From IMG/VR virus record IMGVR_UViG_2737471838_000004, positions 1 through 55,334 of that record: a DNA stretch of 55,334 bases. One strand, given 5' to 3'. The DNA is from a virus (lineage: Duplodnaviria > Heunggongvirae > Uroviricota > Caudoviricetes). The position numbers and the translations under genes are program-made. Below, one piece after another: positions 4,521-24,742 of the stretch (position 1 is the stretch's first letter; the number at the start of each line of letters is the position of its first letter). Under the pieces are notes generated by a model. It ran no database searches. It was not told the DNA's origin and was given only the letters and a program-made list of their open reading frames with translations.

Positions 4521-4550
4521 AAACCCCGCGCGAAGCGGGGTTATTTTTTA
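4521..4550. terminator. bidirectional rho-independent terminator (ends lipoprotein gene on + and J on -)
   Basis: stem CCCCGC/GCGGGG with GCGAA loop, T-tract TTATTTTTT on +, A-run upstream giving T-tract on -; J stop codon lies in the T-tract. Confidence 0.6.
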
Positions 4551-7500
4551 TGACCAAGAACCAGAACTCCTTGTAACAAGCGCAAGTCCAGCCCTTCTTT
4601 CTGTACCTGTACTGGTGTTGGTGTATTCTTCTGTTATTGTTATGGTTACTTTTTGCGCCGTGATCCCTGTGACGCAATGTGATACCGTAAATCCAAATTG
4701 AGGCGTAGATGCCGCCCTCACGACTGAATATGTTTTACTATTTCCATTAATGTTTATTGTCACTTTTATGGTTGTTGACTGAGAATACTGATAGTAAGTC
4801 AGGTGATAAGGAATCATCACAAAAACGGTTTTAGAAAGCGAACTCGAAGACGAATCTGTATAAGTTTTAGTAACAGAACGCGATGCACTGTCCGACTGGT
4901 TAGGGAATGATGCTTGAGGTATAAAGTTAGTTGACGCGACATCGCCTACAAAACTTGTAGCCTCTAGCGACCCTTTAAATTTACCGCTATTTGCATACAC
5001 CGCCCCCCTTACCGTTACGTTGTTAAGCTCCGCGCTACCGTTTTTATTAATCATCCAGCCAGCCGAACCGGCTTTATAGTTGGTTGACTGTATTTGCTGT
5101 GCAATTTTAGCTGTAGTGATTGCTGCATCTGCAATTTTAGCCGTTCCTATTGATGCGTTTTTAATAAACGCTTCGCGCACATACATTGCACCATTTGTAA
5201 CATAGAAAGGTGTCGTATATGTGCCGTTTGCCGCCGTCATTAGCACAAAACGGTCAACAAGGAAAATGCATTGTGATTGTGTGCTACTTCCCGATCCGGT
5301 CATACCTAACGAAATCCCGGACGCATACTTCATGCCGTTATTGTCAGTAGCGATCTTAATGCTCCACGTTGCCGACATATCTGTTTCAATACCGGCAATT
5401 GCGGTTTTGTTTTCCTCGATTGATACCGATTGCCCGTCGATTGAGGCCGTGATACTTTCGATCTGCGTGGCGGTTGATTCCTTGTAAGATGTAAACGCTT
5501 CGCCCCACTCCGTGATCGATGCTTCGTTTGCTTCCAGTGATGCGCTAATCTCCGCAAACTGTGTAGCGTTGGCCTTTTCGTGGGTAGCAAGTGCCGTTTG
5601 CATTTCGGTAATGGCTGCCGACACATCATCATCGATTTGGGCTTGCAATTGCTCCAGTTTCTGCGCGGTCGCCTCCTTCTCTGTAGCAATAACTGAATCA
5701 ATGCGCTCAATTTCTGCTTTCGTTTCCGCTTTCTGGCTCTTATATTGCGCCGTTAACGATGTGCGGGTTCTGGCGTTAGCTAATGAGTTATTCATAAGCG
5801 CAATGGCTGCGTTTTGCAGGCTGGCGCGGGTCTGCATTAGCTCGTTTTCCTGCTCCGTCAATTCTACGCTGATTTCGTTAATCTGGCTTTCGTGCTCCCC
5901 AATTCCGTCCTCATTGTTTTTTATACGTTCTTCCAGATCGGCGGTTGATTCCTTCAGGTCGGTAATAGTCTGGTTCATTTCTTCCACGTCACCCATTAAA
6001 CCTCCTGTTACTTCGTCCATGGAGTCCTTGATCATGTTCTGGAATTGTTCGCTTTCCATAACTTCATTCAGCACGGCATCCGTGATTTCTTCGAAGTTTT
6101 CGGAAGGTTTACCGCTGGCTTCGATAAAGTCAGATACACCGAAAGCGTTTTTTGTGCGCACGTAAACGTAATACGTGTGCCCCGTTGCCATCCCGCCGAA
6201 GGTCCATTGATACCCGCGCCCGGTGAATTGCGCTGATGTGGTTACTTTGGATGGATCTGTGATCTGATTTTCCCCTGAGTAGTAGAACTCGTATGCTGTA
6301 TCAGTGGTTAGGGTTGTTTTGCTGATCGGGTACACCGTTGCCTGAAAAACACCAGGCACCCAATTAACGCCGACGGGGGCCGCTGGCGCACCAATAACCA
6401 GATCCACAATACTTTCTGCGCCCTTCATGCCAGTGTCATTACGACCGCGAATACCAAGCGTGTAGCTGCCTGCGTCGAGGCCATAAAATTCATAGCGGTA
6501 ATTCGTGGTTTCATAACTTGCCACCACGCGACCGTCTGCATTATATACGCGGATTTCAAAGGTAAGACGATGCGTTGTTGTCTGTGTTTCCCATGTTGCG
6601 CGGCATTGAACCGTTTCAGAACCAGCGTTTAACACTTTCAGATTTTCAATGTTAGGTACGCGGAAGTGATTAAGCGTGTCGTTGTTGATTTCGAAGACTG
6701 CGCCTTCATCAACTACGGCCTGTTTGTTAGGGTCGTGCTGTGCGGCTTCGATAGTGTATACGCTGTTATTTTCTGTTTCCGCTACGCTGGTGATCCTACA
6801 TAAAACGGGTTTTGCTGCTTCAGTCGATACAGCAAAAACAGTGCCATTGCGAATCCATGCCGGGGCCGCAGCAAGGGTAATATTGTTTCCGTTAATTCCG
6901 GTGATCTGGTGTTTTTTAAATTTACCATCGTTATCAAGTAATCTGATGGTGTCACCAGCCGCGATATATTCAGAATCAACCTTATCGACCGTTATCACTT
7001 TGCCATTGTTCGCCACGATACGACCGCCCAAACGAGCACCAGCGCGGTTATTGTCGAGGATCTCGATAATATCCCCAGGGGTGAAGTGAATGGCGTCACG
7101 GGCCATTTTAAACGTAAATTTCGACGGCTCGCGTTTTGCTGTTTCGATCAGCCATTTACCAGCGCGGTAAGCCTGTCCGCGAGAAGTACAGCCGAACGCC
7201 TCCAGCGTGGTTTCGTTGTAGCCGTCGCGGGCGATCAGTTCATCGTCAGAGACATACTCTTTTGACTGTTCCCAACCGTTACCCGGATCAGTCCAGGATA
7301 CAATCACGGCGTTGTAGCACTCAGCGCGGGCAAGGCTCGAACGGGTGAATACACCATCTACGACATTTGCGTTCGTGATAGTTGCAATCGGATCTTGTGG
7401 CGCATCAATCATCACTGTAAGACGTTGCCCATCCCATAACGCAATACCACGGAACATGCCAGCTATATTATCAAGTAAGTCGCGGGCGCTCATTTGCTCT

Positions 7501-8504
7501 GTGATGTAAGCGTTAAGCGTCATGCGAGGCTCTTTCCCACCGTAGCCATCATCAACCAACTGATCGCAATATTGTGAAAGCGTGTATAAAGCGCCATCGT
7601 CAACATCAATATAACCAGCCTGTCGAGCAAGGCCGAAACGGTCGTTTTTGATCAGGTAGCGGAACAACCACGCGGGGTTATTGGTGTACGCCTTTTTAAA
7701 GCCACCCAGCCATAAACCGGAATAAGTGCGCTTTTCCGGGTCGTAGTTATCAGGAATATCAACAATCAGTCCGCGAAGGTGATAGGTGCGGGTGGGCGTG
7801 TCAGTGTACTGATCATGATCAATCACCACTCCAGCTACAGCGGTGTGAGGATAAGACAAATTATCGTCGATGATTTCGCTGTAACTGCTCCACCGTGTAT
7901 CATTGCTAAGTAGATCGCTGTTGCTGTCTGCCGTTACTCGGCGAACGCGAATATCAAACGGCTTTTCATCCGGCGCGTTGATAATGTGAGCTTCCAAGTA
8001 TTCACCGCTCTGTTTACCAGGCCCGATGGTAATATCCTTAACCAGCGTCCACGTAGATGATGATGATGGCTTAACATCAACCATTAACATAACTGACGTG
8101 TTGTATTGATTGCCCATATCATCTGACTGAACGAGAGCGTCAACGCCAACATTTAATCTGACGCGGGTCACGTTCGGATCTGATACCGTCCTGACCAGTG
8201 GGGTGTCATGCGTTACTTTTGCGTTGACAATAACGGTTGATTCAATGGCGTTGAAGCCGTTGATTGGTGATTGATCAGCCGTACCATTACGCCATGCCAC
8301 GCTAACACCAGGGACTGATGTGTTTCCGCTTGCGTCAGTGATGGGAGTGTCATTAAGCATCACGCTGTTTAATGGAGCGGTTTGATTGACGCAGCCAAAA
8401 ATTGGACCTTCACTTAGAATATCCAGAACCCGATAAAATTGTTTGTGATACAAATTATCATTAATCAAGGTAGGTGTTTTCGCCTTACCGCCACCACTAG
8501 ACAT
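4548..8504 (-). CDS. J: host specificity / central tail fibre protein J
   Basis: ORF 4548..8543; start moved to the internal ATG (MSSGGGKAKTP) preceded by GGAGG; lambda gpJ-like N-terminal and central regions plus a long coiled-coil segment and divergent C-terminal domain. Confidence 0.85.
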   Translation of the reverse strand: MSSGGGKAKTPTLINDNLYHKQFYRVLDILSEGPIFGCVNQTAPLNSVMLNDTPITDASGNTSVPGVSVAWRNGTADQSPINGFNAIESTVIVNAKVTHDTPLVRTVSDPNVTRVRLNVGVDALVQSDDMGNQYNTSVMLMVDVKPSSSSTWTLVKDITIGPGKQSGEYLEAHIINAPDEKPFDIRVRRVTADSNSDLLSNDTRWSSYSEIIDDNLSYPHTAVAGVVIDHDQYTDTPTRTYHLRGLIVDIPDNYDPEKRTYSGLWLGGFKKAYTNNPAWLFRYLIKNDRFGLARQAGYIDVDDGALYTLSQYCDQLVDDGYGGKEPRMTLNAYITEQMSARDLLDNIAGMFRGIALWDGQRLTVMIDAPQDPIATITNANVVDGVFTRSSLARAECYNAVIVSWTDPGNGWEQSKEYVSDDELIARDGYNETTLEAFGCTSRGQAYRAGKWLIETAKREPSKFTFKMARDAIHFTPGDIIEILDNNRAGARLGGRIVANNGKVITVDKVDSEYIAAGDTIRLLDNDGKFKKHQITGINGNNITLAAAPAWIRNGTVFAVSTEAAKPVLCRITSVAETENNSVYTIEAAQHDPNKQAVVDEGAVFEINNDTLNHFRVPNIENLKVLNAGSETVQCRATWETQTTTHRLTFEIRVYNADGRVVASYETTNYRYEFYGLDAGSYTLGIRGRNDTGMKGAESIVDLVIGAPAAPVGVNWVPGVFQATVYPISKTTLTTDTAYEFYYSGENQITDPSKVTTSAQFTGRGYQWTFGGMATGHTYYVYVRTKNAFGVSDFIEASGKPSENFEEITDAVLNEVMESEQFQNMIKDSMDEVTGGLMGDVEEMNQTITDLKESTADLEERIKNNEDGIGEHESQINEISVELTEQENELMQTRASLQNAAIALMNNSLANARTRTSLTAQYKSQKAETKAEIERIDSVIATEKEATAQKLEQLQAQIDDDVSAAITEMQTALATHEKANATQFAEISASLEANEASITEWGEAFTSYKESTATQIESITASIDGQSVSIEENKTAIAGIETDMSATWSIKIATDNNGMKYASGISLGMTGSGSSTQSQCIFLVDRFVLMTAANGTYTTPFYVTNGAMYVREAFIKNASIGTAKIADAAITTAKIAQQIQSTNYKAGSAGWMINKNGSAELNNVTVRGAVYANSGKFKGSLEATSFVGDVASTNFIPQASFPNQSDSASRSVTKTYTDSSSSSLSKTVFVMIPYHLTYYQYSQSTTIKVTININGNSKTYSVVRAASTPQFGFTVSHCVTGITAQKVTITITEEYTNTSTGTERRAGLALVTRSSGSWS

Positions 8505-9063
8505 ATAGACCTCCAGTTTCGTGTAATTTCGTGTAACCGGCACCAGCTTTGTTTAGCTCTTCAATCATAAACGACCGCCACGCAACGGCGGCGTTAATCG
8601 CCATCTCGAGACCGCCCCACGACATAACGCTAAATGATTTGCTAATTCTTTTAGCGTTATCAGTGGTAATGCGTGCTCTAATAGATCTACCTTCTGCGTG
8701 CCAACACACTCCAAAAGGCAAGCCGTTAAACCTTATTGAACGACCTACAGTCATGTTTCTGGCGTTGCCTTTTTTATCTGTTACGCGTATGTTGTTGAAT
8801 TTATTGTTAAGCCCATTACCATCAATGTGATCTATGATTTCACCGCGTTTTAATTTTCTGCCGCTGCATAATTCGAAAACAATCCGGTGTGCATAATAGC
8901 GGCGGCCCTTCCATGTAATTTTCCAATACTTATTGCCGCTTTTTGCTGCTACTATTTTCCCCGCTGCGTCGCCCGCCCGTGCCGTTCTGCTGTTAGCGGT
9001 GACCTTCCACCTTAAACATGAAGGCGAATCCTCATCATAAACAAACAATTCAGACCAGTTCAC
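8497..9063 (-). CDS. HNH homing-endonuclease-like protein (HNH + AP2-like domain) inserted between tail genes I and J
   Basis: 188 aa; YAHRIVFE...GEIIDHIDGNGLNN...NIR motif pattern of HNH_3/AP2 endonucleases; paralogous to three other ORFs in the window. Confidence 0.7.
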   Translation of the reverse strand: MNWSELFVYDEDSPSCLRWKVTANSRTARAGDAAGKIVAAKSGNKYWKITWKGRRYYAHRIVFELCSGRKLKRGEIIDHIDGNGLNNKFNNIRVTDKKGNARNMTVGRSIRFNGLPFGVCWHAEGRSIRARITTDNAKRISKSFSVMSWGGLEMAINAAVAWRSFMIEELNKAGAGYTKLHETGGLYV

Positions 9064-9076
9064 TTTAACCCTCCTG

Positions 9077-9607
9077 TTAACTTACAACGTCTAGGGCGTC
9101 TTTATTATTGGTTGTGTCAATACCCAAGGAACCAACATTCGAACCTATTTTCATTTCACCCAACAGGATCGGCACTGGTCTACCCTGGCCAACCTTGTTT
9201 TCAACGCTGGTGTATGTGTTGTTAGATATGGTGTTATCTTGTGCGCTTTCTGCTGATGTTTTTATCTTCATATTGCGTGACATGAAGATCGAGAACGCAA
9301 CGCTGACAACCGAAACACCGATCAAAATCCAGCCTACAACGCCAATCCCTGCAATACCGCCTTCCACCACTGGCGCAACAATGACGGTAGTTCCGTCCGG
9401 GTATTTACTGTTAACCGCTGCGGGCGCGGTCTTTTCGTTATAATCTTTTCCGGCAATCCTCAGGCGCAATGGGGTACTTAAAAACGCCTTTTTGAACTCA
9501 TGATTCTGCGCAACCAGTAAGTTAAGCCCTTGCGCTGGCGTATCAACGCTTAAACACACCTTGCCGTAATATCTTCGAAGATTGCCCGTAAATCTAAATT
9601 TGAGCAT
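9077..9607 (-). CDS. I: tail assembly protein I
   Basis: 176 aa; position after K; hydrophobic central segment and C-terminal LLGEMKIGSNV similar to lambda gpI (LYGEMRVGSRV). Confidence 0.7.
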   Translation of the reverse strand: MLKFRFTGNLRRYYGKVCLSVDTPAQGLNLLVAQNHEFKKAFLSTPLRLRIAGKDYNEKTAPAAVNSKYPDGTTVIVAPVVEGGIAGIGVVGWILIGVSVVSVAFSIFMSRNMKIKTSAESAQDNTISNNTYTSVENKVGQGRPVPILLGEMKIGSNVGSLGIDTTNNKDALDVVS

Positions 9608-10281
9608 TTGTCAGATCTCCATATTGAGTTGGTCTGTCGAACATACGCAGGCCGCATTTGCTCGCGGCGGCTTAATAGTCCGGCATTGTCATGATGCAAA
9701 ACAGTATTGTCTCCCAGGTAAATCATCGCGTGACATGGGTCAGCGCCTTTAAACGGCTGGCGGATAATCACATCACCTGGCTGAATGCTTTGCGCGTCAA
9801 CCTGATAAAACCCGTTTAGCGGCAAGTTTTTTAAATACAGGTTTTCCCCACGCAGCCACCACCCATCGTTGCGCTCAAAGTCCGGTAGATCCACGCCACA
9901 AAGGTGATAGGCGTCACGGAAAAGCGAGTAACAATCTGTTTTCCCGTGCTCAAATTTACGGCCCAACAGGTGAGCCACCGGGCGGAATTTTCTAACCATG
10001 CCACCGGAACACAAATACCACGGCAGGCCGGAAATAACCTGCTGTTGTCGATCCCGTGCTGACAATATCAACGAATTGTCAGTATGGGAGTGAAAAACGG
10101 CGGTTATAACGCCTAATTCGTCAGCTTTGATATAATCGTCAGGCGATATTTTAAAGCTGTTGTGCGGCGTTTCAGACACGTTTAAGCACGGGTAAAAATA
10201 ATCGTTATCTATCACCAACCCGCACACTTCCTCGCGCTGGTGGGCTGCCGCATAGCGAATCATTTTATCTTCAAGTGCCAT
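9550..10281 (-). CDS. K: tail assembly protein K (MPN/JAMM + NlpC/P60 domains)
   Basis: ORF 9550..10377 trimmed to the ATG abutting the L stop; JAMM motif HSHTD and NlpC/P60-like Cys (DCYSLF); conserved position between L and I. Confidence 0.75.
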   Translation of the reverse strand: MALEDKMIRYAAAHQREEVCGLVIDNDYFYPCLNVSETPHNSFKISPDDYIKADELGVITAVFHSHTDNSLILSARDRQQQVISGLPWYLCSGGMVRKFRPVAHLLGRKFEHGKTDCYSLFRDAYHLCGVDLPDFERNDGWWLRGENLYLKNLPLNGFYQVDAQSIQPGDVIIRQPFKGADPCHAMIYLGDNTVLHHDNAGLLSRREQMRPAYVRQTNSIWRSDKCSNLDLRAIFEDITARCV

Positions 10282-10283
10282 AA

Positions 10284-10988
10284 TTAACCGACCTTGCTTG
10301 ATCCGGGGAAACATGAAATTGGTAACGGATTGGGGCGCGGGAAACGCAAACGGCAACCGCTCAGGCGGTGGCTGCATTTATCCAGTTTTGGATCGCTGGT
10401 CGATTCGTCTTTATCTGTAGCTACAGGGCCGCCACTGTATCCGCAACCGTCGCCCCGGTATTGCCACTGGCAAACGTCAGCGAGGATTGTGCGCCCAGGG
10501 ATAACTGCCTTGTCGGCATCAATTGGCGTTGAAAGTTCATATTGCACCTGGTCGGCTGTTTCTTCGCTCATCGCCTCAACGACGTAAAAAGATACAGCCT
10601 CGATAGATGGATCTGCATCTGGATTGCCATTGGGGAAGTTGACAGCGTCCAGATATTTTACTTCCACCTGGCGGCGCGTAACCTTCATTCCTCGCAGGTC
10701 GTTGAAATCGTTGTTCATCCCGGTGATTAGCCCGCCAATGTTGGCTACTACCATTTGCGGGCGCGAGTAAACGCCTTCGTTTTTCATTTCGAAGCCAGTA
10801 GCCTCGATTGGGTAGCTGTTGTAAGCCAAGCCCTTCCAGATAACCGGGCCGTAATAGCCATTCGTGCCGGAATGGAAGCGGATAACCTCGCCACCCAGGG
10901 GCGTGAGGTCTAATTCAAACAAGTCAATTACCGCTCCGACCCCTGCATCGACGGAATCAATAATCATTTCTGTAGGTATGCTGCGCAT
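10284..10988 (-). CDS. L: minor tail protein L
   Basis: 234 aa; clear similarity to lambda gpL (FLDAVNF.NGN, RGD.CGYSG, DKCS..LSGC). Confidence 0.85.
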   Translation of the reverse strand: MRSIPTEMIIDSVDAGVGAVIDLFELDLTPLGGEVIRFHSGTNGYYGPVIWKGLAYNSYPIEATGFEMKNEGVYSRPQMVVANIGGLITGMNNDFNDLRGMKVTRRQVEVKYLDAVNFPNGNPDADPSIEAVSFYVVEAMSEETADQVQYELSTPIDADKAVIPGRTILADVCQWQYRGDGCGYSGGPVATDKDESTSDPKLDKCSHRLSGCRLRFPRPNPLPISCFPGSSKVG

Positions 10989-11041
10989 TTTATCACCTTG
11001 TCATTTTGTGATCGCCATCACGCTAAATCATACCAAAACGG

Positions 11042-11070
11042 TTGATAGCGCTTTTTACAATATGTATATT
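11042..11070 (+). promoter_or_regulatory. sigma70-like promoter of moron cassette B (TTGATA-17-TATATT), -10 overlapped by inverted repeat ACAATAT-gt-ATATTGT
   Basis: near-consensus -35/-10 with 17-bp spacer in the L/M intergenic region, upstream of plus-strand ORFs. Confidence 0.4.
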
Positions 11071-11116
11071 GTACTCAAAAGGAAGCATGGTTAACAAAAT
11101 GGCGCGGAGGTGTTAT

Positions 11117-11272
11117 ATGGCTGACAAGGTGTGGAGGTTGACGGTGTTCCTGGCTGATGGCAGGGAAATGACTGTAGCTCTGTATAAAGACGAAGGCGAG
11201 GCACTGACTGACGCGCTTTTACTTGCTGAAGATGACCGCGTTTTGGGGTACAGGATAGAACCTGTCAAATGA
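11117..11272 (+). CDS. hypothetical small protein (moron cassette B)
   Basis: ORF 11042..11272 trimmed to the ATG preceded by GGAGG (MADKVWRLTV...); alternative start at 11087. Confidence 0.4.
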   Translation: MADKVWRLTVFLADGREMTVALYKDEGEALTDALLLAEDDRVLGYRIEPVK

Positions 11273-11284
11273 GAGGTTAACAAA

Positions 11285-11638
11285 ATGCAAAAGTATCGTC
11301 TTGATGTCTGGATGGCTGGTAGTGATGATTGGGAAGGTTACGGCTTGCATGACAGTTACGAAATGGCGGTCGAGGAAGGAGAAAAACTCGTTCGATTCTT
11401 CGGTCGCGCAAGAGAATTCAAAATTACTCCAGTACAAATACCGGATAAGGTGGAAGATATGAACCCGAAAGATATTAACTTTAACGTCAATGTTGAATTT
11501 GCTGATTCTATGGATCAATCTTGCCCTGGCGAAATACACGCAAAAGGTTTCCCGGCTGACGATCCTGAAGCAAAACGTGAATACGAAAAAGCGGCAAAAG
11601 ATTTCTGTATCGACAATTTGTCTGCGTTCAATAAATAG
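11285..11638 (+). CDS. hypothetical protein (moron cassette B)
   Basis: 117-aa ORF, acidic, tightly spaced after previous ORF. Confidence 0.5.
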   Translation: MQKYRLDVWMAGSDDWEGYGLHDSYEMAVEEGEKLVRFFGRAREFKITPVQIPDKVEDMNPKDINFNVNVEFADSMDQSCPGEIHAKGFPADDPEAKREYEKAAKDFCIDNLSAFNK

Positions 11639-11647
11639 GGTGGGAGT

Positions 11648-11896
11648 ATGGCGCGGCGTAATCACGGGGATTATGTGTACACGTTGAAACAGGCCGCCCG
11701 CCTTATCGGTTATCATGAACACGAATTTATTGATTTGCTGATTGAGCGCGGGATACTGTACCAGGTCTGTTTAACACTGTACCCGAAAGCGAAATACCTA
11801 CAGGAAAAGTTATTCATCATCATGACGGATGAAAACCAGGTCAACCATTCATTCGTTACTGATAAGGGCGTTAATTATCTGCGTGATAACTTATAG
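11648..11896 (+). CDS. hypothetical protein, possible HTH (moron cassette B)
   Basis: 82-aa ORF; GGGAG RBS; segment YTLKQAARLIGYHEHEFIDLL resembles a helix-turn-helix. Confidence 0.45.
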   Translation: MARRNHGDYVYTLKQAARLIGYHEHEFIDLLIERGILYQVCLTLYPKAKYLQEKLFIIMTDENQVNHSFVTDKGVNYLRDNL

Positions 11897-12052
11897 GTGA
11901 CAGATTATGAAAAATAGAAGTTTTGGCGCTAATAATAATGGGACTGATAGTATTTGGCGTTCATGCTGCCGATTGGGACTGGGCGGCGATAGCCAATAAT
12001 ATGGCGCACGCACACCCAATGAGTTTGCTGTATATTAACTACTAAAAGAAAA

Positions 12053-12080
12053 CCCCGCACGAAGCGGGGTTGTTTTTATA
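12053..12080. terminator. bidirectional rho-independent terminator, near-identical to the one at 4521..4550
   Basis: stem CCCCGC/GCGGGG, loop ACGAA, T-tract; about 41 bp including the preceding AACTACTAA shared with the 4509..4550 site (2 mismatches). Confidence 0.6.
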
Positions 12081-12276
12081 CACCATCAACCAAAAATAAA
12101 ACCTCCTTGCCTTCCCTGGATCTGCATCCTACATACCCATCACCAACATCATGAAGATACCATGTATCGCCATTGTCAGCCTTTACAGTAAGGTCGTTGA
12201 TCTCGTAGTCGTCAAATAATGTAAAAGCGTCAGTTTTGTCCACTACACAAGTCCCGTACATAACAACCACCCCCAA
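12076..12276 (-). CDS. hypothetical small protein downstream of M
   Basis: 66-aa ORF immediately after M on the same strand. Confidence 0.35.
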   Translation of the reverse strand: MGVVVMYGTCVVDKTDAFTLFDDYEINDLTVKADNGDTWYLHDVGDGYVGCRSREGKEVLFLVDGV

Positions 12277-12630
12277 TTAGCCAACAACTTGCTCAAATGT
12301 TGCGTTTAGCGTGTATACAGGCCCGTCCTTTGTCATACTCCAGCTACGGCAAACAAAAAGCCTTTGCACGCCATCCATAGACGGCGACCAGTAAAAAGCC
12401 TCGACAGCGCCGCGCGCCCTCAAGAATGCTTCTGCCTGGATCGCCACGTTCCCACTATCACCGCATCCTGCGCTACTGCCTTTAAAAACCAGGGTGTAGC
12501 TATCAAGCAACGTGTTAATCCCTTTCGCCTGGCGCTGTTCATAACCATCACCAAGTTTAACGACCGACACATTTGGTTCCCTGGTCACGCTGTAGCTTCT
12601 TTGCGGCGTCCATCTGAAAACTTCCGGCAT
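12277..12630 (-). CDS. M: minor tail protein M
   Basis: 117 aa; lambda gpM-like motifs (FRW.P, GDGYEQR, FEQVV); GGGGGAA RBS. Confidence 0.8.
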   Translation of the reverse strand: MPEVFRWTPQRSYSVTREPNVSVVKLGDGYEQRQAKGINTLLDSYTLVFKGSSAGCGDSGNVAIQAEAFLRARGAVEAFYWSPSMDGVQRLFVCRSWSMTKDGPVYTLNATFEQVVG

Positions 12631-12729
12631 GATTCCCCCTATAAGTTACATATTGCATACATCTTTACGCGCTTCTACGCGAAAAATGATAACTTCGTCA
12701 CAAGAATTATACCCAGTTTACGAAATGGC

Positions 12730-12758
12730 TTCACACAGGACGCAACAAGATGTATACA
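12730..12758 (+). promoter_or_regulatory. candidate promoter of moron cassette C (TTCACA-17-TATACA) with upstream AAATGGC module
   Basis: 17-bp spacer; the 12-mer AAATGGCTTCAC is shared with the cassette D promoter at 15951..15962. Confidence 0.35.
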
Positions 12759-12799
12759 GAAAGCAAGAAGAGAAAGCAGTACCGACAAAGGGGGCCAAT

Positions 12800-12955
12800 A
12801 TGGAACGCTATGTAGTGGTAATGCTAAACAAAGCATTCGAACAGGTGGAAGTTGCGATTGTGAAGGGTTTTGATGATGCATTCAAATACGGTCAATTCAT
12901 GATGAATGCAAAAGAAGATGAATACCGTGATTTCTTCCTGAAAGTGGTCAACTGA
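12800..12955 (+). CDS. hypothetical small protein (moron cassette C)
   Basis: ORF 12629..12955 trimmed to the ATG with AAAGGGGG RBS (MERYVVVMLNK...). Confidence 0.4.
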   Translation: MERYVVVMLNKAFEQVEVAIVKGFDDAFKYGQFMMNAKEDEYRDFFLKVVN

Positions 12956-12975
12956 TTGATTGCGTGGGGTGAGTT

Positions 12976-13230
12976 ATGAAATTGGTGGCGATTGGCAAAA
13001 ACCTGAAAGCACAGAAAAACGCACAGGAACGGATCATCAAAAAAGGCAAGGCTTTATTAAATTCTTTCCTGAAAAAAGAGGCCAACCCCAAAAAATTACG
13101 CGATGGCTACGGCTATAAATTTGACATCAACCCCGATTGGCGGTTATTCAGCGAAGATTTAAAGATGTGGTTAATTATTGACCATCTGGAATACAACCGC
13201 CACTGTGGCGTAAAAGGGGCGCATAAATGA
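12976..13230 (+). CDS. hypothetical basic protein (moron cassette C)
   Basis: 84-aa Lys-rich ORF. Confidence 0.45.
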   Translation: MKLVAIGKNLKAQKNAQERIIKKGKALLNSFLKKEANPKKLRDGYGYKFDINPDWRLFSEDLKMWLIIDHLEYNRHCGVKGAHK

Positions 13231-13533
13231 GGTGAAATATGGATGACGATAAATTCACCTGGCGGGAGATCTGGAACATCTGGCAGGTGATGTTTGCTCG
13301 CAGCTACATAGCAAGAAACGGCAGGTTGTGATTTGCGGAGGAAAATAAAATGAAAAACCCGGCAAATAAAAGCAATGTAAAACGTATGGCATGGGTGCTA
13401 AAATATATGGATAGCAAAGGGGATACATATACATGTCCATTTTTCAGGTATACTGACGCGGTGTTTACAAGAAGTGTACACGGAGGGAAAATTGAGAGAG
13501 GATATACAAGATTTGAGAATAACTAAAAGATAA

Positions 13534-13560
13534 CCCCGGCATTGTACCGGGGTTTTGTTT
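13534..13560. terminator. bidirectional rho-independent terminator (cassette C / tape measure gene)
   Basis: stem CCCCGG/CCGGGG, loop CATTGTA, T-tract TTTTGTTTATTTG; preceded by TAAAAGATAA. Confidence 0.55.
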
Positions 13561-15907
13561 ATTTGCGGCGCGGTTGCAACATTCCTCCCGGTCGTTGCGA
13601 TTCCCTTGCCATCATTTTCATTGCTACGCGCTCCATCGTCTGCTCAAGTCTGCGGCTATCTTCGTCGCTAAATCCGTTTGTGGTCTGAACTGTGATTTGC
13701 ACAGGCATATTGATGCCGCCACCATTGAAGAGATCGCGGCCAGGAATTACCCTACCATTTTCGCCAGGAATCATATACTGACGCCCGTTGCTCGTCTGGA
13801 ATAGCTCAGGTATTCCGTGTTCCCCTACTCGATACAGGCTACCACCATTAACAGAACCACCATTATAACGCCCGCCACCAAAGATTGACGTTGCCAGCGA
13901 CATGATCGCAGAAAGCGCCGCAGCACCAGCCGCCGCCCAGCTACCACCAGTTGACGCAGCCGTAGCCGCCGCTGCCGGGGCCGCCGCCGCTGCAATCTGG
14001 CCTTGTGCCGCTACCGCGCCTGCCGTGGTACTTGCTTGCGTGGCCTTGCTTTGTGTTTCCATCATTAACTGATCTGCTATCCAGTTAGCGGCAATTTCTG
14101 ATAGTTTGTTGCCAACGGTGTTAAGTATGCTACTTCCCAGGTTGGCAAAAACCTCGCTTAATGATTGAGTACCGTTTAACAGTCCTGTAAGGGCATTGCC
14201 CATGCCACCTTTCAGGCCGCTGGCGCAAGCGCCGATCAGTCCGTTTGTTTCGCTTTGCGCCTGCCATTGCTCCCACTTCAGATCCCGGATCTGTTGTTCG
14301 TATTCCAATTGCGCCTGTCTCTGTTGCGCCTCTGTAGCGCCCAGGTCCAATAGCATTTGCTTTCTTACGGCCCATTCATTTTGCGCCTGTTTGATTGGGT
14401 CAATTTCGCCCTTAAGCTGGTCCATTGGGCTAACTATGTGGTCCCATTTGTCGCGTAGCTCATCAACAGGGATTTGCGCCAATTCGTCCTTCAGTTCCTT
14501 GCCTATACCTTTCTGCGCGGCCTTGTACTCAAGGAGGGTTATTTTTCCCTGGGCAAATGCGGCGTCAATGGCCTTGCCGTTCTCCAGTGCTTTACGCATA
14601 GCGGCGGCGTCTTTGTTGTACTGGTCAGAGACTTTTATACCTTCATCACCAAGCCGATCAGCTTCAGATTTCTTGTCTTTTTTGCCCTTTTTACCTTTTT
14701 TCGGTTTACCAACTGGCTGATCGAATCCCGTGATCTTACCATCGTCAGCCTCACCCTGTTTCTCCATGAACTCATCATAGGCGGCAGTTGCGTTTTTAAT
14801 GTCGTTTGCAAACGTCATGACCTTACCAACTGTAGGGCCAAATTTCTTCTCGTTGTTGCTATTTAGCTCTTCCTTGCGCTTGTCAATGATTTCCTTCATC
14901 CATTTGTAGCCATCCATTAGCGCCTTGATTGGCGTTACCATCCTGATAATCTCTTCCGCCACCTCGCCAGCCTTAACAGCAACATCATCAAACATGTCGA
15001 TAAATTCGCTGCCAGCCGTTTTTAGTGTATTGAAACATGTTGCGGCGAATTTTGCGCCTTTACCTAATCCCTCAACGCCACCAGTGATTAAGTCTATTGC
15101 CGACACAACGCCATCTGATATGCCGAAAAGATCGTCTAGCTGTTCGACAAGTCCCATAACCTCAACTTTAAGCTCGTTGAAGGCCATGCCGGATGTGCGC
15201 GGCAACTGTGCGAACTTCTCGTTTGTTTCCTGCGTGGCGGCCTGGATCGCGTTAAGCATCCTTTCAGCAGTGATCTTGCCGTCCAGCATTTCAGCGCGGA
15301 ACTGACCCATTGACAACCCCATCTGTCGGGCCATTTCCTGTATGATTGTTGGGGTGTTGTCACGGATTGAGTTAAATTCTTCAGCCTGCAACACGCCAGC
15401 ATCAATAGCCTGGCGGAACTGGCGCATGGAGTTTGATAGTTGTTCCGCAGACACGCCGCCCAGGTTGCCGAGTTTTTGCAGCGTGCTAACCAGGTTGAGG
15501 ACCTGGCCTTCCGTAGCGGATGTGTTTTTTAGCGATATAGCAAGACCTTGCCACAGATCGCCAGTATCCTTGAGGCTTTGGCCTGTTTCTTTTGATATTT
15601 CTTTCAGTCTATTGAAAACGCGTTCCGTGGCCTCCGCTTCACCTGTAAGCAGTTTGATTTTTACGCGAAGCATTTTTGCCTGCTCCGCCATGTCAATAAA
15701 CTGGCGAACCGCCTCCGCAGCAAGCAACAGATGAATGACCCTGGATAGTGCTTTGATTGAAGTCTTAAGCGTGTTCACCTGGCGGTCAGCGCGTTTTGCG
15801 CCACGCTCGATACTGTCAAAAGCCTGGTCCGCCTGTCGCTGAGCGACTAGAAGTTGACCAGTTTTTGCATCAACTTCGTAATAAATTGTACCTAAACTGG
15901 TGGACAT
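13559..15907 (-). CDS. tail length tape measure protein
   Basis: 782 aa; long alpha-helical protein with Gly/Ala-rich C-terminal part; positioned between tail chaperone and M. Confidence 0.85.
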   Translation of the reverse strand: MSTSLGTIYYEVDAKTGQLLVAQRQADQAFDSIERGAKRADRQVNTLKTSIKALSRVIHLLLAAEAVRQFIDMAEQAKMLRVKIKLLTGEAEATERVFNRLKEISKETGQSLKDTGDLWQGLAISLKNTSATEGQVLNLVSTLQKLGNLGGVSAEQLSNSMRQFRQAIDAGVLQAEEFNSIRDNTPTIIQEMARQMGLSMGQFRAEMLDGKITAERMLNAIQAATQETNEKFAQLPRTSGMAFNELKVEVMGLVEQLDDLFGISDGVVSAIDLITGGVEGLGKGAKFAATCFNTLKTAGSEFIDMFDDVAVKAGEVAEEIIRMVTPIKALMDGYKWMKEIIDKRKEELNSNNEKKFGPTVGKVMTFANDIKNATAAYDEFMEKQGEADDGKITGFDQPVGKPKKGKKGKKDKKSEADRLGDEGIKVSDQYNKDAAAMRKALENGKAIDAAFAQGKITLLEYKAAQKGIGKELKDELAQIPVDELRDKWDHIVSPMDQLKGEIDPIKQAQNEWAVRKQMLLDLGATEAQQRQAQLEYEQQIRDLKWEQWQAQSETNGLIGACASGLKGGMGNALTGLLNGTQSLSEVFANLGSSILNTVGNKLSEIAANWIADQLMMETQSKATQASTTAGAVAAQGQIAAAAAPAAAATAASTGGSWAAAGAAALSAIMSLATSIFGGGRYNGGSVNGGSLYRVGEHGIPELFQTSNGRQYMIPGENGRVIPGRDLFNGGGINMPVQITVQTTNGFSDEDSRRLEQTMERVAMKMMARESQRPGGMLQPRRK

Positions 15908-15940
15908 GATTTAACCTCGTAAAGTGTGATCCTGATCTCT

Positions 15941-15986
15941 ATTTTATACAAAATGGCTTCACTTCAACGAATACATTTTGTATAAA
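15941..15986 (+). promoter_or_regulatory. candidate promoter of moron cassette D (TTCACT-17-TATAAA) bracketed by a perfect 13-bp inverted repeat TTTATACAAAATG / CATTTTGTATAAA
   Basis: inverted repeat arms overlap the -35 upstream region and the -10; located just upstream of plus-strand small ORFs. Confidence 0.4.
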
Positions 15987-16280
15987 GAGGCTAAAGGAAA
16001 GGGATAGAGTAAAGGGATTTAGAAGACCGGATTAACCGGAGGAAGCAAAAGAGGATAAGAAAATGAAAAACTACTACCGACCCAACGAGCATGAGCACTA
16101 TGCCGACTTTATCGAAGAAATGCTGAAAGCACTTAAAAACAAGAAATAAGCTGGGCAGGCAAATGGACACAATCAAAACAGTTATAGATGTATATATTAC
16201 GGCATGGTTAGCATTTAATGTGATGGCTGTGCTAGTGCTGGCAATGACAACCGAAGATAAACGTAATTAGGGGGTGTATC

Positions 16281-16583
16281 ATGGAAATGGTAATTTGCTT
16301 CGTAGGATTCATCGCAACTATGGTTGTGGCTCAGAAAAAACATCTGAATATGCTATTGGCATTCTTTGGTGCGCTGATTTGCTGGCCTGCTGTATTGATT
16401 TACGCACTGTGTGTTAACAAAAAGATGTTTAAACACTACGTCGATGCATTGACTTTCGTTAACATGGAGTACCCAAACGCAACTGACGTACAGAAAACAC
16501 AGGTTGCAACTTACCTATACGATAACGTGTACGATATTCACGACCTGGATGAGGCAAGATGCAGATTTGCAGCATACAAATAA
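16281..16583 (+). CDS. small integral membrane protein (moron cassette D)
   Basis: 100 aa with two hydrophobic helices; preceded by two mini-ORFs (about 16063..16149 and 16164..16271) and followed by a terminator. Confidence 0.5.
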   Translation: MEMVICFVGFIATMVVAQKKHLNMLLAFFGALICWPAVLIYALCVNKKMFKHYVDALTFVNMEYPNATDVQKTQVATYLYDNVYDIHDLDEARCRFAAYK

Positions 16584-16591
16584 AGATAAAG

Positions 16592-16618
16592 GCCCGGTTA
16601 ATTCCGGGCTTTTTCTTG
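16592..16618. terminator. bidirectional rho-independent terminator (cassette D / tail chaperone gene)
   Basis: stem GCCCGG/CCGGGC, loop TTAATT, T-tract TTTTTCTTG; preceded by TAAAGATAAA. Confidence 0.55.
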
Positions 16619-17278
16619 CTCGCGTTTTTTCATCAATTCCAGCACCCTTTTAGCGGCCTCCATTTGCTCATCATAATCACGTTTATTTATCTGAACGTTT
16701 GGCTTACGTTTCTCGTTTCTTTCGTCTGGTGGCGTTTTAGCGCGTACAGCGGCCCTATATCCGGTCATTGTCATACCCCACGCCTCAGACTCAGACAACC
16801 CCAGGTGAGCAACGGCAGAATAAACATACTCAAGGATGTCGAATGTTGGCTTGTACTCACCCTCCTGGTTTGTGACCGTGTCTTCATCTGGTCCGTCACC
16901 AATTAAACCGTGATACATGCAGTGTTGCGCCAGTGTGATAACGTCGCTGGTGGGCATCAATCCAGGTTTTAGTCTTAACTTACCAGAAGGAGTAAAGCTG
17001 CATTCGCCCAATAACGGGCCTATTTCGTCCTCTGAGCAACATTTCAGGACGTGGATGGACGTTTGCACTAACTCACCATAACAACGCGCCAGAATGCGAT
17101 TGCGGAGGTCTGTATCCGTTGGCAAGCGTTGTGGGTATTTGCCACCATGCACCGTTGCGAAATATTCAACCAGTTCCCTGTCACTGCCGATCTTAGCCAT
17201 TGCAGCAAAGCAGGGATTGAATTCGTAACGTCTGCCATCAACCACAACCGCAAACTGTCCTGTTCGAACGTGAATCAT
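16598..17278 (-). CDS. putative tail assembly chaperone
   Basis: ORF 16598..17287; sits between major tail and tape measure genes, acidic with basic C-terminal tail; no obvious G/GT frameshift partner; start probably ATG at 17278 (GGGTGA RBS). Confidence 0.4.
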   Translation of the reverse strand: MIHVRTGQFAVVVDGRRYEFNPCFAAMAKIGSDRELVEYFATVHGGKYPQRLPTDTDLRNRILARCYGELVQTSIHVLKCCSEDEIGPLLGECSFTPSGKLRLKPGLMPTSDVITLAQHCMYHGLIGDGPDEDTVTNQEGEYKPTFDILEYVYSAVAHLGLSESEAWGMTMTGYRAAVRAKTPPDERNEKRKPNVQINKRDYDEQMEAAKRVLELMKKREQEKARN

Positions 17279-17286
17279 AGTTGTCA

Positions 17287-17315
17287 CCCTAAAAATAAAG
17301 GGGCCAAATGGCCCC
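17287..17315 (-). terminator. stem-loop terminator/attenuator after major tail gene
   Basis: GGGGCCATTTGGCCCC hairpin followed by TTTATTTTT on the minus strand. Confidence 0.45.
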
Positions 17316-17326
17316 GATGTTAATAT

Positions 17327-17809
17327 TTACTGTTGCACTGACGGAACGTCACCTACTGTGACCTTGCCAGCGCTTTCGCACTCAATTGACCATGTTGATA
17401 CATCGTCGTGCGGATCTTCTTCTTTAAAGGAGGTGCAAAGGAACGGGCCTTCTGTTACGTCGAGCGGAGAAACGAGTTTAAGCCAGACGTAAGGCTGCGC
17501 ACCAGTTGTTTCGCCAGGGTTAATAACGTGGCGTTTAAGTACTTTCTGGTTGTGGATTTCTTCGGTGCGGGATACGCCGTCACCTGAGAAGGCAACAGAT
17601 TTGTAAGTTACCAGTGATTCTTTGGTGTAGTCTGCTGATTTATCAGCGGTGGCGTCTGCGGTTTCCCATTCTACGGAAAGAGATTTGCCACGCATCATGC
17701 CTAACGCTTTATAAGCGCCTTCTTCAGGTTTCGCATTAGGGCAAGCGATAGCGTAAAATACGGCAACGTCGCGGCCTAAGAACGAACCTTTATCACAAGT
17801 CTGAGACAT
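17327..17809 (-). CDS. major tail (tube) protein
   Basis: 160 aa; position and composition typical of siphovirus major tail subunits; followed by an attenuator hairpin. Confidence 0.7.
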   Translation of the reverse strand: MSQTCDKGSFLGRDVAVFYAIACPNAKPEEGAYKALGMMRGKSLSVEWETADATADKSADYTKESLVTYKSVAFSGDGVSRTEEIHNQKVLKRHVINPGETTGAQPYVWLKLVSPLDVTEGPFLCTSFKEEDPHDDVSTWSIECESAGKVTVGDVPSVQQ

Positions 17810-17822
17810 GTTTAGTTACCTC

Positions 17823-18209
17823 TTATCTAGATATGATGGTTTGGAAAGCTACGGTGAAAATAAAGCGCCCTTCTCTCGTCTGCATTGCAGGAATAGCGCC
17901 AATTGGTTTCATGTGAGTAATTTTATCAGTTTTGTATTCGGTTATCATACTCTGGCGTATTGCGTCGGCGAGGTCTTCCACTTCACTGATATTTGCGTCA
18001 TTGCGTGCTGAAATTACCAGGATGCGGAAATAATCACGGGTTACTGCTTCTTCACCAGCCGCGCCACCGTTTTGCTGTATGACAATGTACCTGTCGTTAT
18101 TCGAATTGGATCGCTCATTCCAGAAACGGGCCTGCAAAATATAACCTTCGTCGTACCCGTGGGACTTAATCCAATCCCTTATTTCGTCATATACTTCGCT
18201 GCGTTTCAT
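17823..18209 (-). CDS. tail completion / head-tail joining protein
   Basis: 128 aa; conserved position in head-tail joining block. Confidence 0.5.
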   Translation of the reverse strand: MKRSEVYDEIRDWIKSHGYDEGYILQARFWNERSNSNNDRYIVIQQNGGAAGEEAVTRDYFRILVISARNDANISEVEDLADAIRQSMITEYKTDKITHMKPIGAIPAMQTREGRFIFTVAFQTIISR

Positions 18210-23361: not shown

Positions 23362-24742
23362 TATCGCGGCTGGAGGTATTCGCCTGATTATCTTCTTCAC
23401 CTTCATCATCGTTTTCCTCTTCCGTTTCCACTACACTGGCAGGGCCATCGTATCCGGCAGCCTCGCGGATCTCGTCACCGCTAAATATTTCTTCACCAGT
23501 AGCCAAACAAGCCTGATTGATTTGTGCCATTTTGTGTGCCGCTTCCAGTAGTTCGGCTTTGGTCATGGCGTTCAGGTCGTCCCATATCACTGATACGTCA
23601 ATTGGCATACTGATAAGGCGGAGATCTGCCATCTTGCTGAATAGATCCTCAAGTTCACCGCCGATTTCCTCCCTGCGGGTCATACAGCGGCTGTTGAAGT
23701 AGCGGAGGTCTTCGGTTGATGCGCGTTCGCCCTGCTGGTTCCCAACCAGGATGCGAGTCGGAATATCAATACCAGCGGCGGCGGTTTGCAGGTTGACATC
23801 ATAGGTTGCTGACGGGTCAGATACGGCAGTCACCAGCGGGCTAACTGTGGCCCCTTGTAATGCCATCATCACGTCGTTACCCTTATTCATTTCATCCGCT
23901 GCCTCGTTGAATTTTTCTCGAAGCTCTGTGACGTCGCATCCGTATGTGGCTGCCAGTGACCGGAAGTCAATATCCTTGTCGAACGAGATAGCTAACTGGC
24001 GGGCAGCGTTTTTCAGGAATGATTCACCGCTACCCCCTTCCACTTTCTCAAGCGACACAAAGGCGTTATATGACGGCTCAAGGAAGGCTATTGCATCATC
24101 AGAATAGTCACCGAAGATGAATATGCGGTCAGGGTGGATCCTTCTTGCTATGGTCTTACTGTTAATGCGTTCCTTGTACTCCCACCACGTCGGCAGGCCA
24201 TAGTTTTCATTATCCGGGTTTTCTTCGAAGTCCTTCGGCGTCAGAGCACCAGCCCATGCCGGGGTAAATTTGGCAATGCCTACGCCTTTTGTCACAGGCT
24301 GGTCCCACGCCTTACCATCTCTGACATGAATCAACAGGCCAGCATAACGACCGATGAGGCGGCGGCGGTCACATTCGGCAATGACGCGCCAAAATCTGTT
24401 GTCGAACTGTTTCTTGATTTCTCTTTCCCAGGGTGTTTCCTTTTCGGCCTTCTCGTCTTCGGTTCCCTCGATTAGCGTTGGCATGGTTCTCCAGCAGGTA
24501 GTGACAATCTTTTCTACAGCACCATGAGCGATACCACCGCGACGATACAGCTTGTATAGATCGTCATAGGTTATTTCTTCTTTGAATCCGTATTCACTCC
24601 ACGCAGCATCACGTTTGGCATCTATCCCCATAGTGAATGGGTGTGCTGCGGCATAGCGGGCGTAGGCCGCCTGGCGTTGAGACAAGGCAGCATTAACCGC
24701 CAATTCTAAATTGGATGGCATAATGTTTACTCCTGAATACAT
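23351..24742 (-). CDS. portal protein
   Basis: 463 aa; acidic C-terminus, position after TerL; start may be ATG at 24721 (AGGAG RBS) rather than 24742. Confidence 0.75.
   Translation of the reverse strand: MYSGVNIMPSNLELAVNAALSQRQAAYARYAAAHPFTMGIDAKRDAAWSEYGFKEEITYDDLYKLYRRGGIAHGAVEKIVTTCWRTMPTLIEGTEDEKAEKETPWEREIKKQFDNRFWRVIAECDRRRLIGRYAGLLIHVRDGKAWDQPVTKGVGIAKFTPAWAGALTPKDFEENPDNENYGLPTWWEYKERINSKTIARRIHPDRIFIFGDYSDDAIAFLEPSYNAFVSLEKVEGGSGESFLKNAARQLAISFDKDIDFRSLAATYGCDVTELREKFNEAADEMNKGNDVMMALQGATVSPLVTAVSDPSATYDVNLQTAAAGIDIPTRILVGNQQGERASTEDLRYFNSRCMTRREEIGGELEDLFSKMADLRLISMPIDVSVIWDDLNAMTKAELLEAAHKMAQINQACLATGEEIFSGDEIREAAGYDGPASVVETEEENDDEGEEDNQANTSSRDNAI

Follow-up and report, generated by a model that had tools for sequence, protein, structure and literature searches.

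The tail operon of the phage genome in IMG/VR virus record IMGVR_UViG_2737471838_000004, a stretch of 55,334 nucleotides (nt) that was analysed whole and is called the window here, lies on the − strand and is broken at fixed junctions by short + strand operons, cassettes A to D. This locus raises the question of what the opposite-strand units are, in particular cassettes C and D, which lie on either side of the tape measure protein (TMP) gene. The preliminary description had taken them for independently inserted morons, a term for autonomously transcribed accessory genes that sit among late genes and are thought to be expressed in lysogens (PMC3594210), with a common promoter module and terminator design. 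The reading that we prefer, at a probability of about 0.6, is that the cassettes are fixed antisense slots with a promoter module at the 5′ edge, a bidirectional terminator at the 3′ edge, and exchangeable distal cargo. As judged from the sequence, the feature is real and conserved and is a variant of the moron theme; its mechanism is a proposal.

In this proposal, cassettes C and D would each begin with a homologous sigma-70-type module, consisting of an A-rich ACAAAATGG element, a TTCAC(A/T) −35, a 17-nt spacer, and a TGTATA-type −10, and cassette B would carry the same module in a near-consensus form. Each unit would close with a bidirectional terminator set exactly at the boundary between its last gene and the tail gene that converges on it. 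The promoter-proximal genes, C1, the ParE-like C2, and D1, would be conserved, the distal cargo, mostly genes for small membrane proteins, secreted proteins, or lipoproteins, would be exchanged by recombination between the conserved edges, and the units would act as fixed, insulated expression slots.

Opposite-strand units at the tail-gene junctions

The window contains the tail module of a temperate siphophage of the mEpimmI group (mEp021/mEp554-like), whose members are Nus-dependent, non-lambdoid temperate siphophages (PMC11893012). Its region 12400-16900 is 96.9% identical at the DNA level to that of Escherichia phage mEp554 and 89–94% identical to those of mEp044, mEp010, and mEp021, and prophages with this region were found in 35 of 5426 complete E. 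coli genomes, with identities of at most 92%. The tail genes and the gaps with + strand open reading frames (ORFs) that separate them are as follows.

1596-4091, − strand, tail fibre gene (Pfam Peptidase_S74)
4092-4547, + strand, cassette A gap, at the junction of J and the tail fibre gene
9550-10377, − strand, K gene (Pfam NlpC/P60 and JAB)
10284-10988, − strand, L gene (Pfam Phage_tail_L)
10989-12075, + strand, cassette B gap, between L and a small gene (12076-12276) beside M
12277-12630, − strand, minor tail protein M gene (Pfam Phage_min_tail, E = 6e-29), its start adjoining cassette C
12631-13558, + strand, cassette C gap, at the junction of M and TMP
13559-15907, − strand, TMP gene (Pfam TMP_3, E = 2e-49)
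15908-16597, + strand, cassette D gap, at the junction of TMP and DUF6246
16598-17287, − strand, DUF6246 gene in the tail assembly chaperone position (PF19759, E = 7e-57)
17327-17809, − strand, tube gene (Pfam Phage_tail_2)

With the core tail genes mapped both in the window and in its relatives, the arrangement of opposite-strand cassettes at four junctions, proposed in the preliminary description, is real. The cassette limits given there agree with the M start (12630), the TMP gene (13559-15907), and the DUF6246 stop (16598), except that cassette D ends at a hairpin (16592-16609) and its T-tract and not at 16618. Cassettes C and D are also, as had been claimed, coding units on the opposite strand: every ORF is preceded by a Shine-Dalgarno sequence, and variation is in excess at third codon positions, even for ORFs of 28–30 amino acids (aa). 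The + strand ORFs are real genes. Those of C and D are listed here, with the number of loci that hold them and, where given, the number of variable sites at each codon position.

12800..12955, + strand, C1, 51 aa, phrog_29810, core, 42/44 loci, 0/0/12
12976..13230, + strand, C2, 84 aa, ParE-like domain protein (PF24732, E = 1.6e-11), core, 44/44 loci
13239..13331, + strand, C3, 30 aa, accessory, 28/44 loci, 3/1/11
13350..13526, + strand, C4, 58 aa, accessory, 20/44 loci, 10/10/36
16063..16149, + strand, D1, 28 aa, accessory, 29/45 loci, 3/1/11
16163..16270, + strand, D2, 35 aa, one hydrophobic segment as read from the sequence, accessory, 10/45 loci
16281..16583, + strand, D3, 100 aa, two N-terminal hydrophobic segments as read from the sequence, accessory, 9/45 loci, 22/11/48

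The relatives comprised 47 viral loci recruited with a tape-measure query, together with mEp554 and mEp021 (49 in all), and the core tail genes were mapped in every one; a scan of a genome collection with TMP peptide patterns yielded no confirmed relatives, and the viral collection gave them instead. A + strand cassette is present at the L/M, M/TMP, and TMP/DUF6246 junctions in every one of the 49 loci that covers the junction, with gaps of 1.0–1.7 kb at junction B, 0.68–2.1 kb at C, and 0.64–1.28 kb at D, and among these loci no empty junction was seen at B, C, or D. The notion of four independent insertions does not survive this comparison, in which every covered junction is filled and in which C1, C2, B2, and B3 are core genes of the lineage (the last two in 41/41 loci) and B1 is near-core (39/41 loci). 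The preliminary description had asked whether the junctions of relatives are empty or carry different cargo; empty ones were not seen, and different cargo was seen only for the distal part of C and for most of D.

The cargo is mosaic across relatives, with swaps between fixed promoter and terminator edges, and the breakpoints of cargo replacement adjoin parts that are common to several cassettes. In other relatives, slot C is occupied by other small ORFs, by a gene for an HNH endonuclease, or by one for a zinc-ribbon protein, and slot D holds predicted secreted proteins and lipoproteins of 106–245 aa. HNH endonuclease genes, the sole cargo family seen in more than one slot, occupy different tail junctions depending on the relative (5854-6420 in locus L002, mEp021_78; slot C in L008; slot B in L033 and others).

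Candidate promoter module and CRP-like sites at the 5′ edges

The 12-mer AAATGGCTTCAC, which the preliminary description had placed in the candidate promoters of C and D, was recovered exactly at both reported positions on the + strand, with no further exact copy in the window. The 17-nt spacers were recovered likewise, from TTCACA (12730-12735) to TATACA (12753-12758) in C and from TTCACT (15958-15963) to TATAAA (15981-15986) in D. The elements of the 5′ edges are as follows.

11007..11070, + strand, cassette B counterpart: CRP-like site and promoter TTGATA-17-TATATT
12723..12734, + strand, C copy of the 12-mer: A-rich upstream element and first part of the −35
12730..12758, + strand, candidate cassette C promoter TTCACA-17-TATACA, without a −7 T; TTCAC and TGTATA invariant in relatives
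15945..15984, unstranded, 11-bp inverted repeat TATACAAAATG / CATTTTGTATA flanking the 12-mer and −35; arms near-invariant in 34 distinct relatives
15951..15962, + strand, D copy of the 12-mer
15958..15986, + strand, candidate cassette D promoter TTCACT-17-TATAAA, without a −7 T; the most conserved stretch of the junction (0.88–0.93 identity)
16027..16071, + strand, D leader: small hairpin CCGGATTAACCGG, ribosome-binding site, and ATGAAAAAC; homologous to the cassette A leader (4227-4276)

When the two 5′ regions were shuffled 5000 times, a common 12-mer arose in 12 of the shuffles. Among relatives, 38 of 39 distinct C junctions carry the 12-mer at about 93 nt from the M start (at most two mismatches; exact in 34), and 32 of 38 distinct D junctions carry it at about 46 nt from the TMP start. 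It is the junction of an upstream A-tract and the −35. A promoter-like module is indeed common to C and D, but it is longer than had been stated and is not theirs alone: with the upstream regions of the four cassettes aligned, B, C, and D fall into one frame, CAAAATGG-n-TT(G/C)A(T/C)n-17-TGTATA, which can also be written ACAAAATGG-n-TTsAy-17-TGTATA, and the 12-mer overlaps the 9-mer ACAAAATGG. The alignment of all four cassettes that had been called for thus gives a promoter frame common to B, C, and D and a terminator common to A, B, and C. A leader is common to A and D and consists of CCGGAT(A/T)AACCGGA, a purine-rich ribosome-binding region, and then ATGAAAAAC (25 D-slot and 13 A-slot copies among the loci), so the parts are reused in differing combinations.

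Of the three candidate promoters in this frame, that of B matches the consensus at 10 of 12 positions in the promoter scanner and ranks second of 110,668 positions on an approximate sigma-70 matrix. Those of C and D rank at about 176–179 and are the top + strand candidates in their own junctions. Across 35 distinct sequences of junction D, identity is highest over 15944-15983, with values of 0.93 and 0.88, and is down to 0.44 past 16004, in the stretch where four or more alternative leaders or cargos start.

Several observations count against a + strand promoter module. The −10 hexamers of C and D are without a −7 T in every relative, and the consensus scanner calls neither; of the features of a sigma-70 promoter (A at −11, T at −7, and a spacer of 16–18 nt), the −11 A is present and the −7 T absent, and the −35 matches at five of six positions in C and at four of six in D. 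The sigma-70 and CRP matrices are themselves approximate, having been built from published consensus frequencies. The entire 5′ region of C is 80–94% conserved, so conservation cannot single out a promoter within it. Finally, candidates on the − strand of the same DNA outscore those on the + strand, at rank 19 of 110,668 in C and rank 49 in D. Because their −10 hexamers are without the −7 T, the C and D promoters are probably weak or activator-dependent, and constitutive activity is not assured.

The scores on the − strand bring in the view that the conserved word serves the tail strand, on which internal sigma-70 promoters ahead of M, TMP, L, and the tail fibre gene would restart transcription. 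In cassette C the −35 would then be GTGAAG (the reverse complement of CTTCAC) with a perfect TATAAT, and the TGTGA palindromes that follow closely downstream would act as operators to silence these promoters.

12706..12711, − strand, candidate internal M promoter: perfect TATAAT, 17 nt from GTGAAG (12729-12734)

This TATAAT (GTGAAG-17-TATAAT) is invariant in 39 distinct relatives in which its flanks vary. In D, the candidate is TTGAAG-15-TAAAAT, and TATTTTATAC is invariant; in B it is TTGTTA-18-TACAAT, where relatives have TAAAAT, and in A it is TCAACA-18-TAAAAT. The palindromes fall at about +1 to +5 of the candidate start sites, and re-initiation would be useful to a tail transcript that meets a hairpin and T-tract after TMP, DUF6246, the tube gene, and the small gene (12076-12276). 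The geometry, however, differs between C and D on this strand, where the 12-mer forms the −35 in C only; that of D is the adjacent CTTCAA, with a short 15-nt spacer, and is unconserved in relatives. AT-rich intergenic DNA also gives many promoter-like matches (20 by the scanner versus 22.9 expected). We rank the + strand reading first because its geometry is identical in B, C, and D, and we regard tail-strand promoters as an unlikely explanation of the word, though one to be taken seriously; such promoters can coexist with those of the + strand as back-to-back divergent pairs.

The abundance of the word points to another explanation, in which ACAAAATGG / CATTTTGTATA is bound by a phage or host regulator and its overlap with the −35 is secondary. 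The 9-mer ACAAAATGG occurs nine times in the window versus 0.84 expected (about tenfold), and the 11-mer CATTTTGTATA occurs exactly five times versus 0.09 expected. Within the window the word recurs at junctions A, B, and D and in early intergenic DNA (37160-37238 and 44934-44945); relatives also have it at junction C.

Copies of the 9-mer ACAAAATGG: 4131-4139, 11094-11102, 15948-15956, 23527-23535, 37163-37171, 37227-37235, 44934-44942, 45690-45698, 50079-50087

The 11-bp inverted repeat that brackets the −35 of D is formed by this word, and exact matches link cassette A to B (the 12-mer CATTTTGTGATC) and to D (the 11-mer TATACAAAATG). On the other side, no protein that might bind the word came to light, several of the copies fall within coding sequence (45690-45698, for instance, is inside the repressor gene), and the spacing and orientation of the copies vary by junction, which leaves a regulator-binding word decidedly improbable as the explanation. 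Many copies of ACAAAATGG / CATTTTGTATA sit in intergenic, promoter-like DNA, and some form inverted pairs.

The edges could also be homologous by inheritance and without present function, as remnants of a duplicated ancestral cassette edge or as short recombination linkers. The common parts occur in varied combinations (promoter in B, C, and D; leader in A and D; terminator in A, B, and C; 85–100% identity), and the cargo breakpoints adjoin them, as such an origin would have it. Yet the promoter core of D is more conserved than its flanks, the TMP-proximal side included, and TTCAC, TGTATA, and the CRP-like half-sites are fixed across loci in which the spacers vary and TMP is as little as 53% identical (best segment) to that of the window. 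Relic homology is accordingly the least probable of the explanations, and we give it very little weight.

Other interpretations of the 5′ edges were rejected. The promoter and leader DNA of C and D gave only seven matches among 50,697 phage records, all of the mEpimmI type, and the module is thus not a widely mobile promoter. The 12-mer is not the start of a peptide (ATG GCT TCA C..): a Shine-Dalgarno sequence is lacking, the frame in C is broken by indels in relatives, and that in D stops after 10 codons. Readings of the motifs as sigma-54, LexA, or IHF sites were ruled out by inspection against the consensus sequences. The leaders hold no known RNA element, as 3500-18000 had no Rfam match at E ≤ 1. 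No promoter could be assigned with confidence to cassette A, for which TATACA-16-GATATT would set the CRP-like site at −81.5 post hoc. Upstream of the cassette A lipoprotein gene, 4146-4205 holds a 30-nt tandem duplication (70% identity) with two ACAAAATG words. The most conserved block of junction C (0.94 identity) is 12664-12684, TTTACGCGCTTCTACGCGAAA, in which TACGCG is repeated directly one helical turn apart.

Activation by cAMP-CRP is an attractive addition to the + strand promoter module because it would explain conserved promoters with poor −10 hexamers. In class I CRP promoters, such as lac P1, TGTGA-N6-TCACA lies one or two helical turns upstream of a suboptimal core, and the class I positions are −61.5, −71.5, and −82.5. 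Candidate sites were found in all four cassettes; the offsets assume a start site 7 nt after the −10.

4137-4152, CRP-like site A, TGTGA-TCTATG-TTGCA
11007-11022, CRP-like site B, TGTGA-TCGCCA-TCACG, offset −62.5 / −63.5; half-sites invariant and spacer variable in 33 relatives
12687-12702, CRP-like site C, TGATA-ACTTCG-TCACA, offset about −70.5; relatives have TGAGA-TCTTCA-TCACA at an equal offset, with a variable spacer
15925-15940, CRP-like site D, TGTGA-TCCTGA-TCTCT, offset about −60.5; TGTGAT invariant in relatives

The offsets of B, C, and D are within 1 bp of the class I positions −61.5 / −71.5. On the CRP matrix, D ranks second in the window, B fifth, A tenth, and C fifteenth, with scores of 15.5 bits for D, 14.3 for B, and 18.7 for the C variant common in relatives, as compared with 15.6 for the lac site. 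Across relatives the half-sites are fixed, the 6-nt spacers vary, and the offsets are constant. The sites resemble that of lac P1 in lying near −61.5 / −71.5 with A-rich DNA between site and −35, and differ from it in that the predicted offsets are 1 bp off canonical for the assumed start site and that the right half-site of D is weak. As class I sites they are recognized by sequence only, with core matches of 8–9 of 10 and an approximate matrix. Single CRP-like scores do not beat the best match in shuffled windows, and like palindromes at 37204-37217 and 40818-40831 lie inside, rather than upstream of, promoter-like cores, where a repressor operator is the better fit. Overall, the sites suggest class I activation of B, C, and D by cAMP-CRP, in which the ACAAAATGG element would sit where the alpha subunit of RNA polymerase docks. 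Nothing relevant came out of literature searches on morons under CRP control or on transcripts of these prophages.

CRP- or operator-like palindromes (GTGATC..ATCAC) occur at 37204-37217, 40818-40831, and 31556-31577 in intergenic DNA of the early region and overlap promoter-like cores, for example GATCACATAAT. The protein in the cro position (46010-46255) has a weak match to a Crp-like helix-turn-helix (E = 7e-4).

Bidirectional terminators at the 3′ edges

Cassettes C and D are closed by hairpins that lie precisely between convergent stop codons, the TMP stop being 4 nt from hairpin C.

13524..13564, unstranded, bidirectional intrinsic terminator between C4 and TMP: A-tract, hairpin 13532-13554, and T-tract; annotated as T16 in mEp554 and TERM_10 in mEp021
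16581..16616, unstranded, bidirectional intrinsic terminator between D and DUF6246: hairpin 16592-16609; annotated as T14 in mEp554 and TERM_9 in mEp021

The C terminator reads TAA-AAGATAA-CCCCGG..CCGGGG-TTTTGTTT and that of D reads TAA-AGATAAAG-GCCCGG..CCGGGC-TTTTT. The preliminary description had seen in them a special design of TAA, AAGA(A/T)AA, hairpin, and T-tract. Both do have a stop codon followed by A-rich DNA, a GC hairpin, and a T-run, but the string TAAAGATAA is unconserved in relatives, and only its A-richness is kept. TAAAGATAA is an A-tract serving as the U-tract for the opposite strand, and what looked like a special design is common to bidirectional terminators of convergent genes in general. 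Mapping of transcript ends in E. coli has established such terminators for convergent bacterial genes, where a GC hairpin with an A-tract and a T-tract works in both directions. The features that define them, placement between convergent genes and a GC-rich hairpin followed by a U-tract whichever strand is read, are all present here.

Both strands of the terminator regions give folds of −15 to −20 kcal/mol, with z-scores of −2.4 to −4.4. The terminator scanner finds the hairpins of A, B, and C on both strands; for D it finds that of the − strand, and its only + strand call is displaced by 13 nt. The terminators of A, B, and C share ACTAAAAGA[A/T]AACCCCG, and those of A and B are 85% identical over 60 nt. 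In relatives, the hairpins of the 3′ edge are kept whichever cargo precedes them. The GenBank annotators of mEp554 and mEp021 predicted the same hairpins as terminators, mostly for the tail strand.

The terminators would keep cassette transcripts from running antisense into the tail genes. In the opposite direction, they would attenuate or block tail-strand transcription unless it is antiterminated. It is here that the cassettes differ from bacterial convergent pairs: one terminator direction lies inside a phage late operon that is still to be read through. Therefore readthrough, antitermination, or re-initiation is required, as it is for the other hairpin and T-tract terminators of the tail strand. 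Gp17 and nut sites have been described for early transcription only (PMC11893012).

One strong tail-strand terminator, GGGGCC-ATTT-GGCCCC with a T-run (17300-17315, − strand; T13 in mEp554 and TERM_8 in mEp021), follows directly on the tube gene and suggests either stoichiometric attenuation or a need for late antitermination. The DUF6246 stop codon lies in the loop of hairpin D, one arm of which encodes the last residues of the protein (…KARN); translation could interfere with tail-strand termination at hairpins C and D. The A and B terminators (4507-4566 and 12036-12095) are direct repeats of 85% identity, 7.5 kb apart, that flank the genes from J to L and could be substrates for prophage deletion of the tail tip genes.

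A fuller version of the slot reading would have all four slots hard-wired and insulated, built from one toolkit (CRP-like site, A-rich element, −35/−10 frame, leader, and bidirectional terminator), with host-interaction genes co-switched by cAMP-CRP according to nutritional state and with the slots as nodes whose divergent promoters and operators segment the tail operon. We think it improbable that all of this holds.

Cargo and relation to morons

The match of C2 to PF24732 (ParE_like) scores 44.5 bits against a cut-off of 24.4, and RefSeq and UniRef name it a ParE family toxin-like protein. Its structure model, with a predicted local distance difference test score of 55.6, was too poor for a fold search. 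Distant homologues of C2 occur in the phage isolates Sortsne, phiKp_21, and Kc237, and close ones only in the present prophage lineage. That C1 and C2 form a classical toxin-antitoxin pair is weakened by loci L038 and L042, which hold C2 directly behind the promoter without C1; the obligate adjacent antitoxin gene of ParDE systems is thus not seen.

Searches with the other cassette proteins gave little. Sequence searches of the PDB with C2 and D3 were empty or insignificant, C1 matches no Pfam or NCBIfam family, and D2 and D3 match no Pfam (E ≤ 0.01), PHROG, or PADLOC family. The PADLOC defence models at E ≤ 0.01 match none of C1–C4, D1–D3, B1, B2, or A1, and an NCBIfam search of the cassette proteins gave no matches.

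Better informed is cassette A, which holds a lipoprotein gene (4268-4516) between J and the tail fibre gene, as mEp554 does at the equal position (mEp554_111). Lipoproteins of this type from mEp021 and mEp010 were shown experimentally to exclude superinfecting phages (PMC11893012). By likeness to this sister cassette, the units would probably serve prophage-expressed host interaction or exclusion. For D, our best guess by analogy is a role in exclusion or surface modification, because the cassette A lipoproteins and HK97 gp15 are exclusion proteins.

Two annotation points concern the cassette genes. Within 11907-12045, the run ATGAAAAAT of the window is longer by one A than its counterpart ATGAAAAT in mEp554 and mEp021; the extra base shifts the frame of the last cassette B gene, which encodes a 45-aa hydrophobic peptide in those phages, and could be a homopolymer sequencing error or a real frameshift. 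In the mEp554 record PP180005, the D-slot ORFs (locus L001, 13721-14272; mEp554_92 and mEp554_93) are called on the strand of the tail genes, which is probably wrong, as codon-position variation and ribosome-binding sites favour the opposite strand.

How far the cassettes are morons by the Juhala/Hendrix definition can now be stated. In favour of this identity, as had been proposed, are a predicted promoter and terminator, low GC content, and accessory cargo in a tail operon; against it, the promoter-proximal genes are not absent from relatives. Cassettes C and D have conserved −35/17/−10 frames homologous to the near-consensus one of B, albeit without the −7 T in either, and factor-independent terminators of their own (13532-13564 and 16592-16616). 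Their GC fractions are 0.413 and 0.399 (0.40–0.44 for cassettes overall), as compared with 0.48–0.51 for M, TMP, and DUF6246 (0.47–0.51 for tail genes). Only the distal cargo (C4, D2, and D3) has the sporadic distribution of extra DNA that is absent from related phages.

The first described moron, HK97 gene 15 (Juhala et al. 2000; Cumby et al. 2012; PMC3594210), occupies the chaperone/tape-measure slot, has its own promoter and terminator and deviant GC content, and encodes a small inner-membrane exclusion protein expressed by the prophage (PMC3594210). Its slot is that of cassette D, and D2 and D3 are likewise small hydrophobic proteins. The cassettes here run antisense to their tail operon; unlike gene 15, they are multi-gene, and the slot is filled in every relative examined; gp15 belongs to the YebO family, whereas the D proteins are without a Pfam match at E ≤ 0.01. 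Morons in general, lambda bor and lom among them, are single sporadic insertions, whereas here there are four lineage-wide slots with reused regulatory parts and partly core genes. The lipoproteins Lpp021 and Lpp010 come from the same mEpimmI group, with their genes in the structural cluster (PMC11893012), as is the cassette A lipoprotein gene, and cassette A is linked to the other slots by a leader common with D and a terminator common with B and C. That study makes no mention of the antisense layout, of common promoter, leader, and terminator parts, or of cassettes B, C, and D. The departures of the present units from morons are thus that they are antisense, multi-gene, fixed slots built of common parts.

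The slots would mark entry points for new exclusion, defence, or surface-modifying genes in this lineage, and they would offer precise promoters and terminators. If the link to CRP is true, accessory genes of the prophage would be expressed according to carbon status, and the question would arise of how transcription of the tail genes gets past four antisense units and several terminators on its own strand. As mEpimmI phages are reported to equal lambdoid phages in abundance among coliphages from human faeces (PMC11893012), their accessory genes likely shape the behaviour of E. coli in the gut.

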